A stretch of DNA of 38,780 nt from Myxococcota bacterium. Lineage in GTDB: Bacteria; Myxococcota_A; UBA796; GCA-2862545. The notes beneath the pieces are model-generated. The model worked only from the letters and a program-made list of their open reading frames with translations. It was not told the DNA's origin and searched no databases. The translations under genes were made by a program, and so were the position numbers. The stretch is taken from positions 1-38,780 of the forward strand of contig JBCCQY010000078.1 in assembly GCA_039208735.1 (NCBI GenBank), read 5' to 3'. Shown here piece by piece: positions 30,274 through 36,339 of the stretch. Numbering within the stretch: position 1 is the stretch's first letter; the number at the start of each line of letters is the position of its first letter.

Positions 30274-30379
30274 GTTTTCCCCAGCACGTTACGACCGGTC
30301 GGGGCGGGTGGCTCTCGATGGATGGAGACATCCTCTGACGGTCCAAACCCCGCACAAACGACAAGAATCCAGCCCGATG

Positions 30380-30406
30380 GACGATGCATGTGTTACATGC
30401 GTCGTC
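30380..30406. promoter_or_regulatory. 12-bp inverted repeat upstream of the TlpA-like gene
   Basis: GACGATGCATGT-GTT-ACATGCGTCGTC, one mismatch. Confidence 0.5.
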
Positions 30407-30435
30407 TTCTCGACGAAGGAATGGTGGAGGTTTTG

Positions 30436-31161
30436 GTGAACCGGAGCATCTTTGCGGTCTTGGCGCTCGCCAGCGTCACCGCTTGCAGCGACCCCGACGT
30501 CAATTCGAAGCTTGGCGACCTCGAAGCTCGCATTCAGAAGCTCGAAGAGACCCCGCGTGCGGCGGCTCGTCCCGGTCAGGCCGACCCGGCCGAAGAGCAG
30601 GCAGCGGCGAACATTCTGAAGGAAGCCACGCAGATGGCTCAGGACATGAATGTCGACGGCGCCAAGGCGAAGCTGGCCGAGCTCAGCGAGAAGTATGGCA
30701 GTACGCGTGCGGCCCGCGCAGCACAGCGTCTGTCCACGGAACTCGAAGTGGTTGGCAAGGACGCAGTCCCGCTCGACGTCGAGAAGTGGTTCAACGGTTC
30801 GGCGGCGGACGTCGAGGGCGGCAAGGCCACGCTCTACGTCTTCTGGGAAGTCTGGTGCCCGCACTGCAAGCGCGAAGTGCCGAAGCTGGCCGAAACCTAC
30901 GACAAGTTCAAGGGTAAGGGCCTTTCGATGGTGGGTCTCACCAAGATGACCCGCAACATCACCGAGGACGAAGTCTCGGAGTTCATCAAGGAGAAGGGTG
31001 TCAACTACCCGATCGCCAAGGAGAAGGGTGACAACCTTTCCCAGCACTACGGCGTTCGTGGCATCCCCGCCGCGGCCATGGTCAAGGACGGCAAGGTTGT
31101 GTGGCGTGGTCACCCGGCTCGCCTCACGGACGACATGATCACGAAGTACCTGGGCGCCTAA
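30436..31161 (+). CDS. TlpA/ResA-family thioredoxin-like lipoprotein
   Basis: GGAGG before GTG 30436; VTAC lipobox; FWEVWCPHC active site; YGVRGIP cis-Pro motif. Confidence 0.92.
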   Translation: MNRSIFAVLALASVTACSDPDVNSKLGDLEARIQKLEETPRAAARPGQADPAEEQAAANILKEATQMAQDMNVDGAKAKLAELSEKYGSTRAARAAQRLSTELEVVGKDAVPLDVEKWFNGSAADVEGGKATLYVFWEVWCPHCKREVPKLAETYDKFKGKGLSMVGLTKMTRNITEDEVSEFIKEKGVNYPIAKEKGDNLSQHYGVRGIPAAAMVKDGKVVWRGHPARLTDDMITKYLGA

Positions 31162-31229: not shown

Positions 31230-32660
31230 TCAGCCCACCGCGAGAGTCGCGGTGGTGGTCAGGGCGTCGAGGCCCGCGGCAACCCGTCCGATGACCAGAA
31301 TCCCGGGGGCCTGTGCCTTTGTGGAGGCGAGTCCCCCGACCACGGTGTGCGTGACACGCTGATCGGGATGGGAGGCGCGTTCCACGATGGCGGCGGGCCA
31401 GTCGGCGGGCCAGCCCGCGGCCCGAAGCTCGTCCGATAAGGTTGGTAAGCGGCCGATCGCCATCAGCATGACCACGGTGGTATCGGGCCGGTACGCGGGC
31501 ACGTCGGGTTGTCGACTGCCTTGGCCATGGCCCGTACACACCAGTACGCGGTCCGCGAGGCCTCGATGGGTCGTGGCAATGCCCGCGAGTGCGGGTGCGG
31601 CCAGGGCGCTGCTTACGCCAGGCAGGACTTCGGCGTCGAGTCCGGCTGCCCGATAGCGCGCGACCTCCTCGCCGCCCCGCCCGAACACAAACGGATCTCC
31701 ACACTTGAGCCGCACCACCACCCGACCCGCGCGAGCCGCTTCGATGGCCTGCCGATCGAGACTATCCTGCGCTTCGTCGGCGTTGCCCTTGCGCTTGCGG
31801 GCAATGCGCAACTCCCCCTCCACCAGATCGAGGATCGCGTCGGGGACCAAGCGGTCGGCAAGCACCAGATCCGCATCGCGGAGTGAATCTCGCGCCGCTA
31901 CGGTGAGCCAGCGAGGGTCGCCTGGACCAGCCCCGACCAGCCGGATGACGGTGGCCGATCGCAGAGGCGCCGCCGTAGGCGGTGGTCGACCTGCGAGGTA
32001 GCGCGCGGTGAGATCGGCCAACTCGGAATCGTCCAGATTGGCGATCCAGGACCAGTTGGCGTGCGTTGCAAGTTCGGTGAGCCAGCTCATGCGCCGGGCC
32101 GCGTTTGCGGGAGCGGGGTCGGCGGACCGAATTGCGCGACGGAGCCGGCCGAACGCCGCAGACGCTTCGCCCAATCGATCCGGCAGGGCGCGGGCGATTC
32201 GCTGGCGAATGCGGCGTGAGAGAGCCGGTCCGGTTCCGTTGGTCGACACTGCGATCTGAACCGGCCCGTCGCGGTGCATGGAGGCAAACCAGAAGTCGCA
32301 GAGGTCTGGCACATCGGCGACGTTGACGGGGATCCGAAGGCCGCGGCACGCCTTTGCGATCCAGGCACTCTGGGCTTCGTCGTCCATTGCGGTGAGCACC
32401 AAATCCGCTTGATCAAGGTCGCTTGGATGAAATCGCCGTGGTCGCCAGGTGACTTCGCCGCGTTCGGCCCGTTGGCGAATCTCTGGCGTGGCCTCCGGAG
32501 CCACGACCGTCACCACGCCATCGGCCTCGAGTGCCGCCACAATGCGCCCTGCGGCGACCGTGCCTCCGCCTACGACCAGGACCTGGCGCGTGTGGAGTCG
32601 CCACGCCACGATCATCGACCCTCCCCCGGCCACCGGGGGGGCTAGACGCGTCACCGTCAT
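31230..32660 (-). CDS. cysG: Multifunctional siroheme synthase (dehydrogenase/ferrochelatase plus uroporphyrinogen-III C-methyltransferase)
   Basis: VLVVGGG, VNVADVPDLCDF, IAVSTNG; LVGAGPGDP, RLKCGDPFVFGRGGEE, PGVSS. ATGA overlap with the reductase gene. Confidence 0.93.
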   Translation of the reverse strand: MTVTRLAPPVAGGGSMIVAWRLHTRQVLVVGGGTVAAGRIVAALEADGVVTVVAPEATPEIRQRAERGEVTWRPRRFHPSDLDQADLVLTAMDDEAQSAWIAKACRGLRIPVNVADVPDLCDFWFASMHRDGPVQIAVSTNGTGPALSRRIRQRIARALPDRLGEASAAFGRLRRAIRSADPAPANAARRMSWLTELATHANWSWIANLDDSELADLTARYLAGRPPPTAAPLRSATVIRLVGAGPGDPRWLTVAARDSLRDADLVLADRLVPDAILDLVEGELRIARKRKGNADEAQDSLDRQAIEAARAGRVVVRLKCGDPFVFGRGGEEVARYRAAGLDAEVLPGVSSALAAPALAGIATTHRGLADRVLVCTGHGQGSRQPDVPAYRPDTTVVMLMAIGRLPTLSDELRAAGWPADWPAAIVERASHPDQRVTHTVVGGLASTKAQAPGILVIGRVAAGLDALTTTATLAVG

Positions 32661-34783
32661 GAGGCCGCCTTCGCGCTGACGCGACCGACAATGGTGTGGG
32701 CTTCCTCAACGAACAACTCAGATTCCACGGCGAGCCGGCGCACCCGGTCGCCGCCCACCTTCGTCTCCGTCATGGCCTGCAAGTAGTAGTGGCCGATGCC
32801 TTCGAAGATCCGGTCCGCATCGTAATAGTGCTTGCGGAAGGCCTGAACTTCGTCGGCGGGCTGGGTGATGCCGTCGAGCGATAACAGCGCTTGGGCCGCG
32901 GCAGAGAAGGCGGCCAACGCGTGCGTGCGCACCTGTTCGGGAGACGAGCCATCTTCGAGGGACCCGATGGCACGGTCCGCATGGCGGTCCGCCTCGGCGA
33001 TGAGGAGATCAGCGTGGAGCACCACCTCGCCGGCGCACTCCCCGACCCCTCGCACAACCTCGAAGGCGTCGGTGACACCTGCCTCCCGATACAACTCGGG
33101 GGCTTCGGAGAACTCTGGGAGGACGGTGAGATCCTCGATCATGGCCTTGAGAGCTCGCCTGCCCTGGCGCCGAACCCAGTCGCCGAACGCCTCATCGGGG
33201 GTGCTGTCATCGACGAACCGCCGACTCACCCGTTCGACCACCGCCGCAATGCGAGCGGCGGGTACTTTGGTGATCGGCAAGGCGAACCCGTCTCCAGGAC
33301 GAGCATCTTCGCCTTTGGCCAATCCGTCCTGGCGTCCCCCGAGCAGTACGACGAAGTGCGGAGCAGCATGTCCGCCCTTGGTGCGCGCGGCGCCAAAAAA
33401 TCCGATGTCTGCGATCTGGTGCTGGGCGCAGCTGTTCGGGCAGCCCGAGAGATGGACTCGGAGCTTGGCAATGCGGGGGTCTTCGGTGAGCGCCTCGAGC
33501 TGGTCTTGTACGGCGCGAACGGCCTTGCGAGGCGAGGTGATTCCAAGCTTGCAGGTGTCCGCGCCAGGGCACGTCACGGGATCCACCACGCCGCCCGAGA
33601 GGACCCCGCCCAGATCGAGGGCGTTCAACCCGTCGTAGAGTGCGCCAAGGCGATCTTTCGCCACCCAGCGGATCCGAAGCGACTGGTCGACACCGATGCG
33701 CGTGGTGTCGCCAACCTGCTCGGCGAGCAGTCGGGCGAGCCCACGCAGTTGGCTCGGATTGAGGTCTCCGCGGGGCACGCGAACCCGCACCTGGACGTAG
33801 CCTTCTTGGCGCTGGGGCAAGACGTTCGTGTTGCGCCACCGGGCCTCGGCCGCGTTGCGGGCGGCGGGCGCTTCCGTGGTGCCTTCATGCAGCGGGTGAT
33901 CGCGCCAGGTCTCCACCTCGAACGCGGCCCATGCGGGGTCTGGAGTCAGCTGGGCCCGTTCTGCTGTGACGGCGTCCCGAAGGCGTTCGATGCCCCAGTC
34001 CGCCACCAGGAATTTCATGCGAGCCCGTGCTCGTTTCGCCTTTTCCCCGTGCCGTGCGAACAGCCGGAGGAGGGCGACGGCGGTTGGCAGAAGCTCGTCG
34101 ACGGCCAGGAACTCCGTGAGCACCGGAGCTTCGTGCGGAACTGCTCCGAGGCCACCGCCCACACGAACGTGGAATCCACGTTGGCCGTCCTTGACCACCG
34201 CCGTTGCACCGAGATCGTGAATCGCGGAAAGGTTCTCGCGCGGGTCGAAGGAGCCCGAGAGCGTGACTTTGAACTTTCGCCCAAGACTCTGCCCATCCGG
34301 ATGCTTCAGCAGATACTGGGCGAGCGCCATCCCGTAAGGCGTGACATCGAAGGCTTCGTGAGGCGAGACGCCCGCGTCGGCCGAGGCGGTCACATTCCGG
34401 ACGACGTTTCCGCAGGCCTCCCGGGCCGTCATTTCGGCATCCGAAAGTACCGAAAGCAGGTCTGGCGTGGCGCGCAGTGCGACGAAGTGGACCTGGATGT
34501 CCTGCCGTGTCGTGAGGTGCGCGATCCCGTGGCCGTAGCGCTCCGCGATGTCGGCGAATGCGATCATCTGTGAGGGGGCCAACAGTCCAAGGGGCAGCTT
34601 GCTGCGCAGCATGTGCACCCCGTCTTGGCGCTGGCCATAGATGCCGTGACGCAGGCGGTATTCGAGGAACACTGCTTCGGGAATCCGTCCGGCTTCAAAC
34701 CGGGCAATCGAGGCATCGAGATCGGCGATTTCGGCGCGGACGACGTCCTTTGCGCCAGCGATGGTGGGACGAAGGGCGGTCAT
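32657..34783 (-). CDS. Siroheme/[4Fe-4S] sulfite reductase (ferredoxin-dependent Sir/NirA type) with a C-terminal helical extension
   Basis: GIYGQRQ, HLTTRQDIQ, ACGNVVRN, RKFK, RARMKF, CPGADTC...GCPNSC ligands and GVGECAG. Lies between cysH and cysG with ATGA overlaps on both sides. Confidence 0.92.
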   Translation of the reverse strand: MTALRPTIAGAKDVVRAEIADLDASIARFEAGRIPEAVFLEYRLRHGIYGQRQDGVHMLRSKLPLGLLAPSQMIAFADIAERYGHGIAHLTTRQDIQVHFVALRATPDLLSVLSDAEMTAREACGNVVRNVTASADAGVSPHEAFDVTPYGMALAQYLLKHPDGQSLGRKFKVTLSGSFDPRENLSAIHDLGATAVVKDGQRGFHVRVGGGLGAVPHEAPVLTEFLAVDELLPTAVALLRLFARHGEKAKRARARMKFLVADWGIERLRDAVTAERAQLTPDPAWAAFEVETWRDHPLHEGTTEAPAARNAAEARWRNTNVLPQRQEGYVQVRVRVPRGDLNPSQLRGLARLLAEQVGDTTRIGVDQSLRIRWVAKDRLGALYDGLNALDLGGVLSGGVVDPVTCPGADTCKLGITSPRKAVRAVQDQLEALTEDPRIAKLRVHLSGCPNSCAQHQIADIGFFGAARTKGGHAAPHFVVLLGGRQDGLAKGEDARPGDGFALPITKVPAARIAAVVERVSRRFVDDSTPDEAFGDWVRRQGRRALKAMIEDLTVLPEFSEAPELYREAGVTDAFEVVRGVGECAGEVVLHADLLIAEADRHADRAIGSLEDGSSPEQVRTHALAAFSAAAQALLSLDGITQPADEVQAFRKHYYDADRIFEGIGHYYLQAMTETKVGGDRVRRLAVESELFVEEAHTIVGRVSAKAAS

Positions 34784-35496
34784 GGCTTCAGCTCGCGGAC
34801 GGGGGTGGGAGAACGGTGAATGCCGCACTCGGTCTTGCGGCTGTGATGCCAACGACCACTGCGCTCGTCGTTGGGGTCGAGAGGGCGGCGGGTGCAGGTA
34901 CGGCAGCCGAGGCTTGTGAAGCCCTGCGTGAGCAACGGGTGGTGGGGCAGGTTGTGGGATTTGATCCGGCTCAGCACTTCGTTGCGCGTCCAGAACGCGA
35001 GCGGGCTGACCTTCACGATGTCGTGCGCCGCGTCCCAGGCCAGCGGTTCAACGGTGGCCCGGCTTGCCGATTGGTCACGCCGAAGGCCCGTGATCCACGC
35101 CTGCTGCCCCTCTAGCGCCCGTCGCAATGGGACGACCTTTCGTAGGTGGCAGCAGCGGTCAGGATCAAGGCGGAAGAGCGCCGCTCCATTGGTCCGGGCT
35201 TGTTCGAGCGGGGTTTGCGTAGGGCGAACCCGCTCGATCGCAATGCCGAAGTGCGCCTCGACGGTCTTGGCAAACGCCAGGGTTTCGTCGAAGAGCAGGC
35301 CCGTATCGAGGAGCAACGTCCGGACGGGCCGCCCGAGTCGCTGCAGCAAATGGAGAATCACGATCGATTGGGGACCAAGGCTGGTCGCCAGTGTGATGCG
35401 TGGGAACGCATCGGTTGCCCAGCGAAGCACGTCGTCGGCATCGACGAGGTCGTCGGGCAAGTCGTCAGGCTCGTCTTCGAGCGAAGCGAGGGCCAT
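34780..35496 (-). CDS. cysH: Adenylyl-sulfate reductase, [4Fe-4S] APS-type CysH
   Basis: LDTGLLFDET, DRCCHLRKVVPL, WITGLRRDQS, SLGCRTCT and ERSGRW...KTECGIH motifs. GGAGG lies 5 nt before ATG 35496. Confidence 0.95.
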   Translation of the reverse strand: MALASLEDEPDDLPDDLVDADDVLRWATDAFPRITLATSLGPQSIVILHLLQRLGRPVRTLLLDTGLLFDETLAFAKTVEAHFGIAIERVRPTQTPLEQARTNGAALFRLDPDRCCHLRKVVPLRRALEGQQAWITGLRRDQSASRATVEPLAWDAAHDIVKVSPLAFWTRNEVLSRIKSHNLPHHPLLTQGFTSLGCRTCTRRPLDPNDERSGRWHHSRKTECGIHRSPTPVRELKP

Positions 35497-35498
35497 GA

Positions 35499-35602
35499 TG
35501 GCCTCCGGAATGACGTACACCGGAGGCCAAGCCAGGCACCCCGGTGCATGACCGGGGTGGAAGAAAAGAATTGCCTGCTAGCGCACGCCTCCGACCCCGG
35601 TC
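35499..35602 (-). promoter_or_regulatory. Alternative RNA helices controlling the cysH ribosome-binding site (candidate translational attenuator)
   Basis: UGGCCUCCGG (35529-35520) pairs with CCGGAGGCCA (35508-35499), which contains the SD. CGGAGGC in the leader (35593-35587) competes for the same anti-SD. A 9-bp hairpin lies at 35559-35537. Confidence 0.75.
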
Positions 35603-35658
35603 CAACGACCACAGCAACACAGGCAGCAGCAGGAGCAGAGCTGGAGAAGGGCACGCAC
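35578..35658 (-). CDS. Poly-cysteine leader peptide (MRALLQLCSCCCLCCCGRWTGVGGVR); alternative GTG start at 35721 gives 47 aa
   Basis: 7 Cys in 9 codons (35637-35611) using both TGC and TGT; stop about 80 nt upstream of cysH; co-oriented with the cys operon. Confidence 0.75.
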   Translation of the reverse strand: MRALLQLCSCCCLCCCGRWTGVGGVR

Positions 35659-35772
35659 GAGGGCAATCCAGGAGAAAGCGGGCCGTTTGGGCTCGCTCTG
35701 CCGTCGTACCTTGAGGGTCACGGACCTGCAATCTGAAGCGGTGGGTCGGTTATGCTCGCGGCCATGACGGCG

Positions 35773-36339
35773 ATGACAGGATGGGGATCGCGGTGGGGAC
35801 TCGCCTTGGTCCTCGTCGCATGTGGACGAACGTTCGCACCGGCGGAGGACGGGTCGCCGCCCGACAACGCTCCCCACGTTGCCAAGGCCGCGGTGACTCG
35901 GCCTGTACCGGCTCCCGAGGGTCCACCCGACCCGTTGCACGGGTTGCCCAGCGACGAGCGCGAGGCTCGACTGCGGGAATTGGGCGAAGAGGCCTATGCC
36001 ATCGAGGGGGCAGGGCGGTGTGCGGCGTGTCACGGACCGGGAGGGCGAGGCCTTCGTGGTGCGATCCCGCCCTTGACCGGAGAGCGGCCGTGGTTGGCGG
36101 ACTGCTTTGCCCATGCCGCGATCGTGTTGTTTGGCCTCCACGACCCGATCGTTGTCGATGGCCTGACCTACGGTGGTGTCATGCCACCGCAGGCGGAGCA
36201 GCTCGACGATCTGCAGGTGGCCGCGATCACCACCTATGTCCACGGGGCATGGGGCAACGCAGGCCCGGTCTGTTCTCCCGATGATGTTGCCGTCGTGCGC
36301 TTTCAAGGCCCCATGAGTCGAATGATCGAGGATCAGTAA
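35773..36339 (+). CDS. Monoheme cytochrome c lipoprotein
   Basis: LVAC lipobox; CAACHG heme motif; IPPL, YGGVMP (axial Met) and TYV..AWGN. Start could be 35752, 35764 or 35773. Confidence 0.9.
   Translation: MTGWGSRWGLALVLVACGRTFAPAEDGSPPDNAPHVAKAAVTRPVPAPEGPPDPLHGLPSDEREARLRELGEEAYAIEGAGRCAACHGPGGRGLRGAIPPLTGERPWLADCFAHAAIVLFGLHDPIVVDGLTYGGVMPPQAEQLDDLQVAAITTYVHGAWGNAGPVCSPDDVAVVRFQGPMSRMIEDQ

Follow-up and report, generated by a model that had tools for sequence, protein, structure and literature searches.

The window, by which we mean the whole 38,780-nucleotide stretch of DNA that was analysed, carries on its minus strand a three-gene sulfate-reduction operon preceded by a short, cysteine-rich open reading frame. 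The genes and the leader are arranged as follows, with the basis of each assignment in brackets.

31230 to 32660, minus strand: cysG, siroheme synthase (family models; ATGA overlap with sir)
32657 to 34783, minus strand: sir, NirA/Sir-type ferredoxin-dependent reductase (all family models below cut-off)
34780 to 35496, minus strand: cysH, (phospho)adenylyl-sulfate reductase (PRK02090 over cut-off; PF01507; invariant Cys)
35578 to 35658, minus strand: leader ORF of 26 codons with a GTG start (sequence; frame test across leaders)
35611 to 35637, minus strand: run of 7 Cys in 9 codons, the predicted stall site (sequence; run kept in relatives)
35752 to 36339, plus strand: divergent c-type cytochrome gene, which borders the regulatory region (sequence; domain search)

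The three operon genes are intact. The cysH gene begins at the ATG at 35496, behind a Shine-Dalgarno (SD) sequence, GGAGG, at 35506-35502 of the minus strand. In the alignment it holds the invariant CC...CxxC cysteine pattern, which we take to suggest the 4Fe-4S APS-reductase type. The NirA/Sir-type product is, by context, a sulfite reductase. ATGA overlaps join cysH to sir and sir to cysG, as the sequence-only reading of this DNA had proposed for the coupling of the operon. Beyond the operon, a strong GC hairpin at 31216-31182, which has no U tract on the minus strand, lies between the converging cysG and thioredoxin-like genes (the latter at 30322-31161, plus strand).

The leader ORF runs on the minus strand from the GTG at 35658 to the TAG at 35578, and its frame is also open from a GTG at 35721. 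Its Cys residues stand at codons 8, 10, 11, 12, 14, 15 and 16, written with five TGC and two TGT codons, so the poly-Cys leader ORF that had been reported ahead of cysH-sir-cysG is indeed there. Such a density is rare, as just four places in the 9.4-Mb genome, read in all six frames, reach 7 Cys per 10 codons. A stop follows within 30 codons at two of the four, namely the cysH leader and one leader before an ATP-grasp gene. Rfam covariance models gave no match to 35300-36000 up to E 5. Between 35400 and 35900, neither a stock terminator scan nor a custom terminator test found any terminator-like site, which agrees with the earlier proposal of a translational output without a terminator.

The leader is conserved in relatives. 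Across 154 genomes of the order, a Cys leader lies ahead of 16 of the 20 cysH matches at E<=1e-46, 15 of them found by script and one, the 4-Cys leader of locus L106, read by eye; conservation of the Cys run in orthologous leaders had been set as a test by the sequence-only reading, and the result is in its favour. The other four cysH loci (L008, L110, L115 and L011) have no leader, and the cysH of L011 appears to sit inside an operon. A first sample of 61 genomes had given a Cys-rich short ORF just upstream in 9 of the 10 best cysH loci, and none near the gene in the other 15. Orthologs of sir at more than 52% identity, collected from 401 genomes of the phylum, have a leader within 1.5 kb upstream in 9 of 11 cases, three of the 11 being the same operons as in the cysH set; L127 and L128 have none even when extra upstream DNA is included. 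At 37-42% identity, the leader was found at 0 of 19 sir loci. A metagenome scan returned merely two distant cysH loci, of which L163 has no Cys pair upstream.

The reading frame of the run is well defined. Of 23 leaders, 21 have an ATG or GTG before the run together with a stop after it in the Cys frame, and the counts for the other frames are 0 and 2; the Ala/Val and Leu readings of the run were rejected on this test. TGT makes up 61 of the 125 Cys codons in the leaders, against 4196 of 14088 in the long coding-like ORFs of the genome. Among the leaders only the Cys run is conserved, while the length, the Cys spacing and all other residues vary. Translation of the motif behind the run would use one frame in L004 and another in L134, so the motif is kept as RNA. 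This RNA contains five short segments with overlapping partners, all on the minus strand, together with a pyrimidine tract.

35594 to 35602, minus strand: segment A (GACCGGGGU), which pairs with B when free (folding, chain search, covariation, RNAalifold)
35550 to 35559, minus strand: segment B (CACCCCGGUC), which pairs with A (ON) or C (OFF), 9 bp each
35535 to 35548, minus strand: segment C, which pairs with B (OFF) or with the anti-SD D (ON, 10+3 bp)
35516 to 35529, minus strand: segment D, the anti-SD, which pairs with E (OFF, 10 bp) or C (ON)
35499 to 35508, minus strand: segment E, which carries the cysH SD (sequence complementarity)
35555 to 35570, minus strand: pyrimidine-rich tract past the leader stop, a spacer or possible Rho loading site (from the sequence only)

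The ON state combines A:B with C:D and the OFF state combines B:C with D:E, and all four helices are perfect in the window over 9-10 bp. Segment A begins 8 nt after the last Cys codon in the window, and 2-8 nt past it across 14 loci. The four complementarities listed in the sequence-only reading are exact, and the hairpin in which it had buried the SD for the OFF fold is D:E, whose core offsets on the SD are paired in 12 of 12 loci. The pairing of 35602-35594 with 35558-35550, mentioned there only as an aside, turns out to be the key helix A:B. A further element, the reinforcement of the ON fold by CAGGCA/UGCCUG together with an inner hairpin, stands only as far as the complementarity, which is exact; the two share two nucleotides (35538-35537), so both cannot fully form.

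An exhaustive chain search recovered the order A-B-C-D-E in 14 of 15 leaders that were picked by eye as having no terminator; L106, L007 and L132 were left out, and L006 was dropped as near-identical to L004. Dinucleotide shuffles matched the observed weakest helix in 0 of 300 trials in 11 loci, and in 1, 3 and 7 of 300 in L004, L003 and L130. The chain is absent from L005, and L106 shows no switch. Cys leaders without a clear terminator or standard relay precede cysH or sir at L005:1294-1434, L106, L007:1413-1540 and L132; L106 carries additional hairpins, its spacer being 145 nt long, and in L007 the leader stop is unusually close to cysH.

Covariation was counted in the 12 of the 14 chain loci that share a register (L003 and L130 were dropped), at three positions flanking each helix core, which gives 36 cells per helix. 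Segment D was misaligned by MAFFT, so the registers were taken from each sequence's own helices. The C:D flanks are paired in 32 of 36 cells, against a permutation mean of 20.4 and with 0 of 5000 permutations reaching 32, although four of the 12 loci (L111-L114) are close kin, so that the counts overstate independence. The pair types change from A-U to G-U, G-C and C-G at one position and among C-G, G-C and U-G at the next. Offsets 6-7 of this helix lie mostly within the loops of both OFF hairpins, and at offset 5 C:D is kept in 12 of 12 loci while B:C is broken in two. The A:B flanks are paired in 23 of 36 cells over the three offsets, which is not significant (581 of 5000 permutations), with one offset paired in 9 of 12 loci (46 of 5000). 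The helix cores are nearly invariant across loci, and the RNAalifold consensus of 10 leaders consists of A:B and D:E.

Upon the observed ORF and helices, with their conservation and covariation, we read the element as a cysteine-sensing translational attenuator that controls the cysH SD through a five-segment relay, at a probability of roughly three in four. The element is real and conserved, resembles in its working the known amino-acid leader attenuators, and most likely senses Cys-tRNA. The course of events, from translation of the leader and stalling to when the helices fold and how strongly the operon responds, is inferred as follows. When Cys-tRNA is plentiful, the ribosome would run across A to the stop, B:C and D:E would form, and the SD would be covered. 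When Cys-tRNA is scarce, the ribosome would halt within the Cys run with A exposed; A would take B, the released C would take the anti-SD D, and the cysH SD would open. If the leader is not translated, the predicted partner of A is the Cys-codon region, and this would again give the OFF state. The ATGA coupling, with polarity, would carry the effect on to sir and cysG.

Energy models give this relay a direction, and show its weakness at equilibrium. With the SD forced open and a ribosome on the Cys run, the best fold joins A:B to C:D. The best completions in the window reach -63.0 kcal/mol for A:B with C:D, -56.7 for B:C with D:E and -67.2 for A:B with D:E, the first and the last being equal when the 3' end is slightly shorter. 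The predicted cost of opening the region from the SD to the AUG is 12.6-15.8 kcal/mol when a ribosome occupies the Cys codons; it rises to 18.7 once the ribosome has reached the stop, and a leader free of ribosomes gives 17.9. Masking segment A lifts the stalled cost to 16.1-18.6 kcal/mol, and freeing A lowers the cost in 8 of 12 loci, with the opposite result in L010, L109, L113 and L134. The SD is mostly closed at equilibrium in every modelled state, even with A free, and C:D is transiently favoured even with the ribosome at the stop; discrimination therefore needs folding kinetics or 30S capture. The path barriers (11.7, 19.9, 17.4 and 21.1 kcal/mol) reveal no kinetic order. In these equilibrium models, the relay only reduces the cost of opening the SD.

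This weak switching at equilibrium is one ground for the alternative that survives best, which we still regard as improbable. It keeps the Cys-sensing leader and has the pyrimidine tract act as the main output, through Rho-dependent termination or through decay of the mRNA, with the helices secondary. The tract at 35570-35555 has similar counterparts in relatives, the genome holds a rho homolog (scoring below the family cut-off), and the same route is suggested for actinobacterial cys leaders in PMC1262725. Such an output leaves unexplained both the conserved D:E helix on the SD, in 12 of 12 loci, and the covariation of C:D.

Slightly less probable again is that a leader segment, either CGGAGGC or A, itself pairs with the anti-SD and encloses the B:C hairpin. 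With CGGAGGC (7 bp, exact), this was the ON fold of the sequence-only reading, and it fares badly in the models: its completion reaches -50.2 against -63.0 kcal/mol for A:B with C:D, about 13 kcal/mol less stable, its barrier back to the OFF state is 7 kcal/mol, and its probability is 0.0 in all stalled ensembles. Masking CGGAGGC does alter the opening cost for some footprints when the ribosome sits on the first or the last Cys codon, but barely shifts it at the other stall positions, while masking A raises it. The motif is not seen in the aligned relay leaders of relatives. Because the core of A is also that of C, an A:D helix is possible on paper in 12 of 12 loci, yet its flanks are paired in 19 of 36 cells against a permutation mean of 20.3, which is at chance.

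The five-segment relay is one of several forms that Cys leaders take in these relatives. Two Cys leaders stand in series before cysH in L002 (1188-1464), L004, L107, L009, L010, L109 and L134 (397-714). In 7 of 7 cases tested, a GC hairpin with a U-rich tail comes after the first leader, together with a predicted antiterminator, and the second leads into the relay. The second leader of L109 was flagged as a terminator by a loose rule and rejected as such, its 'tail' being segment D. In L131 and L133, a single leader is followed by a terminator. The antiterminator of these two loci and of the first leader of L134 is a GACCGGGG/CC(C/U)GGUC pairing, the same as A:B of the window, which suggests that one sensor helix may be wired to either output, terminator or SD relay. 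A tandem leader of this type also occurs in L044, a 'Myxococcota bacterium' record that lies outside these counts. As a separate observation, the final 16 nt of the window's leader (within 35607-35578) are identical to the end of the first, terminator leader of L002 (within L002:1188-1220); the window leader's A segment, by contrast, matches both relay and terminator leaders. This suggests that leader halves may have been duplicated or shuffled.

How the window's leader is started bears on the state of this particular copy. One promoter-like pair was found.

35726 to 35731, minus strand: predicted -35 hexamer TTGCAG (custom TTG-N16..18-xA search)
35703 to 35708, minus strand: predicted -10 hexamer TACGAC (custom search)

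TTGCAG-17-TACGAC is the sole pair from the custom search and ends 44 nt before the GTG at 35658; transcription would start near 35696. A stock promoter scan found no site at the leader. A second Cys leader of the same genome, described below, is preceded by TACGAC too, 17 nt after TTGCCA, and a comparable pair lies before 16 of the 17 first leaders examined. An in-frame start follows the -10 at 4-11 nt in 11 of the 17, as expected for leaderless or near-leaderless mRNA. The window's leader is an exception, since its GTG has merely GGA 8 nt upstream, and the leaderless start that had been suggested at 35658 is doubtful, even though many relatives do look leaderless. The GTG at 35721 was considered as the likely start and rejected: the predicted promoter lies across it, which on this reading puts that start outside the transcript and gives the 35658 leader an untranslated 5' stretch rather than a leaderless start. 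For the element of the window itself, this poor initiation signal is the weakest point. A weak hairpin and then a short pyrimidine run occupy 35699-35674 (minus strand), at the predicted 5' end and ahead of the leader start; this could be a pause site or the remnant of a lost first attenuator. No first, terminator leader was seen between cysH and the divergent cytochrome gene.

It is conceivable, at odds slightly lower than for direct capture, that the family element is real while the window copy has partly decayed, having lost a first leader and good initiation, so that the operon would be mostly OFF or otherwise regulated. The missing SD and the long predicted 5' spacer, unlike most relatives' first leaders, fit such decay, as does the high absolute cost of opening the SD in the window. 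Against it, four helices remain perfect, three genes remain intact and coupled, and single relay leaders are also found in L003, L111-L114 and L130.

Other Cys leaders of the genome (G000) include an independent instance of the chain. A second poly-Cys leader, with 7 Cys, lies at G000:C5:48800-48880 (minus strand; L156, L165), before an uncharacterised RimK-like ATP-grasp gene. It shows the same five-segment chain in a sequence unrelated to that of the cysH leader, and its modelled opening cost is 12.3 with the ribosome at the stop and falls to 4.8-7.2 when it stalls. Of 24 ATP-grasp loci, 14 have a Cys-rich ORF no more than 450 nt away, four of them with terminators and one probably there by chance. 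A third leader, with a Cys/Met-rich end, is found at G000:C25:38450-38535 (minus strand; L157, L189), before metY-metX-aspartate kinase/homoserine dehydrogenase; the models showed neither an SD switch nor a terminator for it. At 6 of 9 metY loci, Cys-rich ORFs within 450 nt mix Met and Cys codons, which matches the product of that operon. The genome also has a Sat-type sulfate adenylyltransferase (G000:C26, L155), with no Cys leader ahead of it. A cysD gene was not found with the query used, and the eight PALP-family loci have no convincing Cys leader, with one CCC frame in L117.

At somewhat better than even odds, these elements would make up a cysteine regulon run wholly by poly-Cys leader ORFs, in which one sensor helix (A:B) would drive interchangeable outputs, namely a terminator, the SD relay of five segments, or the two one after the other. 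Its members would include sulfate reduction, metY-metX-aspartate kinase (by way of leaders mixing Met and Cys codons) and the ATP-grasp ligase. If this is true, one uncharged tRNA would gate the transcription and then the translation of the same mRNA. The Cys leader before the RimK-like ATP-grasp ligase would then predict for this enzyme a role in sulfur or cysteine metabolism. The least probable of the alternatives is that the peptide itself functions, as a metal or sulfur binder or modified-peptide precursor, or that a signal different from Cys-tRNA is sensed by the stall. Although Cys-rich peptides can bind metals, the leaders differ in length, Cys spacing and other residues, their post-run motif is kept as RNA in L004 and L134, the metY leaders carry codons fitting the operon product, and the peptide has no NCBIfam match.

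Leaders with several interacting segments or two sensors are known. The his leader of E. coli and Salmonella is a multi-segment fold, and the rtpA (anti-TRAP) leader of Bacillus subtilis combines a T-box with a Trp leader peptide. As in rtpA, the tandem relatives would sense one uncharged tRNA at transcription and then at translation; unlike rtpA, where the first sensor is a T-box RNA, both of their sensors are poly-Cys ORFs.

The likenesses and differences given here apply to the parts of the published work that were compared. In the mycobacterial Ms5788A leader (Canestrari et al., 10.1101/834739), a single duplex joins the Cys codons directly to the SD region, and mycobacterial reporters show cysteine-dependent translational attenuation; Cys attenuators of mycobacteria are also confirmed in PMC13096801. 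The element in the window resembles these polycysteine ORFs in having a Cys run in a short ORF before sulfur or cysteine genes, control of SD access without an intrinsic terminator, an OFF state without leader translation (modelled here) and several loci per genome. Unlike in Ms5788A, the SD is held by a separate anti-SD, D, and the signal would be relayed through A:B and C:D; when the Cys codons are left free in the models, their partners lie inside the leader region and the SD is bound by D. Stalling here would free a downstream segment rather than mask the anti-SD. Additionally, a leaderless start as in the mycobacterial ORFs is doubtful for the window copy, and the phylum is different.

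Beyond mycobacteria, Cys codons in a short ORF upstream of cysteine-related genes are shared with predicted actinobacterial cys leader peptides, for which the accessible part of PMC1262725 reports no conserved hairpins, and with the Deinococcus deserti cysS leader, which has two Cys and no structure described in the corresponding part of PMC4007540. A Streptomyces metN leader contains both Cys and Met (PMC8079986). With the trp and his attenuators (PMC3896937; further background in PMC2965389), the element shares a run of regulatory codons, a helix just downstream that would form only on stalling and alternating helices, and its A:B motif is the predicted antiterminator of the terminator-type relatives. 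The differences are that the last helix buries the SD, that there is no terminator with a U tract and that cysteine is sensed. In ermC and cat, a leader ribosome controls an SD hairpin in response to antibiotics (10.1101/834739). Here too a hairpin buries the SD of the regulated gene (D:E, 10 bp), but no specific arrest peptide is conserved and the downstream genes are metabolic. Tandem leaders are described for ermBL/ermBL2 and mgtCBR (PMC8274638, PMC3641672), which answer to antibiotic or other cues; unlike these, the tandem relatives have a Cys run in each of their two leaders, the one with a terminator and the other with an SD relay.

The literature searched, mostly without subscription papers, describes no poly-Cys leader in Myxococcota, no such cysteine SD relay and no tandem Cys leaders that join a terminator to a relay. 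In the same literature, experimental evidence for cysteine sensing by a leader ribosome is limited to mycobacteria, by direct pairing of Cys codons with the SD. The element, about 200 nt in length, would represent a structurally different and covariation-backed route to cysteine control in another phylum. Its terminator-only, relay-only and tandem versions would form a natural series leading from transcriptional to translational attenuators, in which the range and sharpness gained from a second sensor could be studied. The leaders may also serve as tags by which genes not yet studied, among them that for the ATP-grasp ligase, can be assigned to cysteine supply.

Leaders of this general kind reach into other phyla, where 25 of the 80 named cysH loci among the matches listed have some Cys-rich short frame. 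Fourteen of the 25, chosen by eye and coming from Chloroflexota apart from one Acidobacteriota and one record titled Oceanobacillus, all have a leader followed by a terminator-like hairpin. Eight of them are tandem (L038, L040, L041, L042, L045, L059, L061 and L090) and the others single (L032-L035, L048 and L078). The Chloroflexota and Acidobacteriota leaders precede cysH or its operon, and are often doubled. The tandem leader of L090, the record titled Oceanobacillus sp., resembles those of Chloroflexota, and the contig is possibly mislabelled or transferred.
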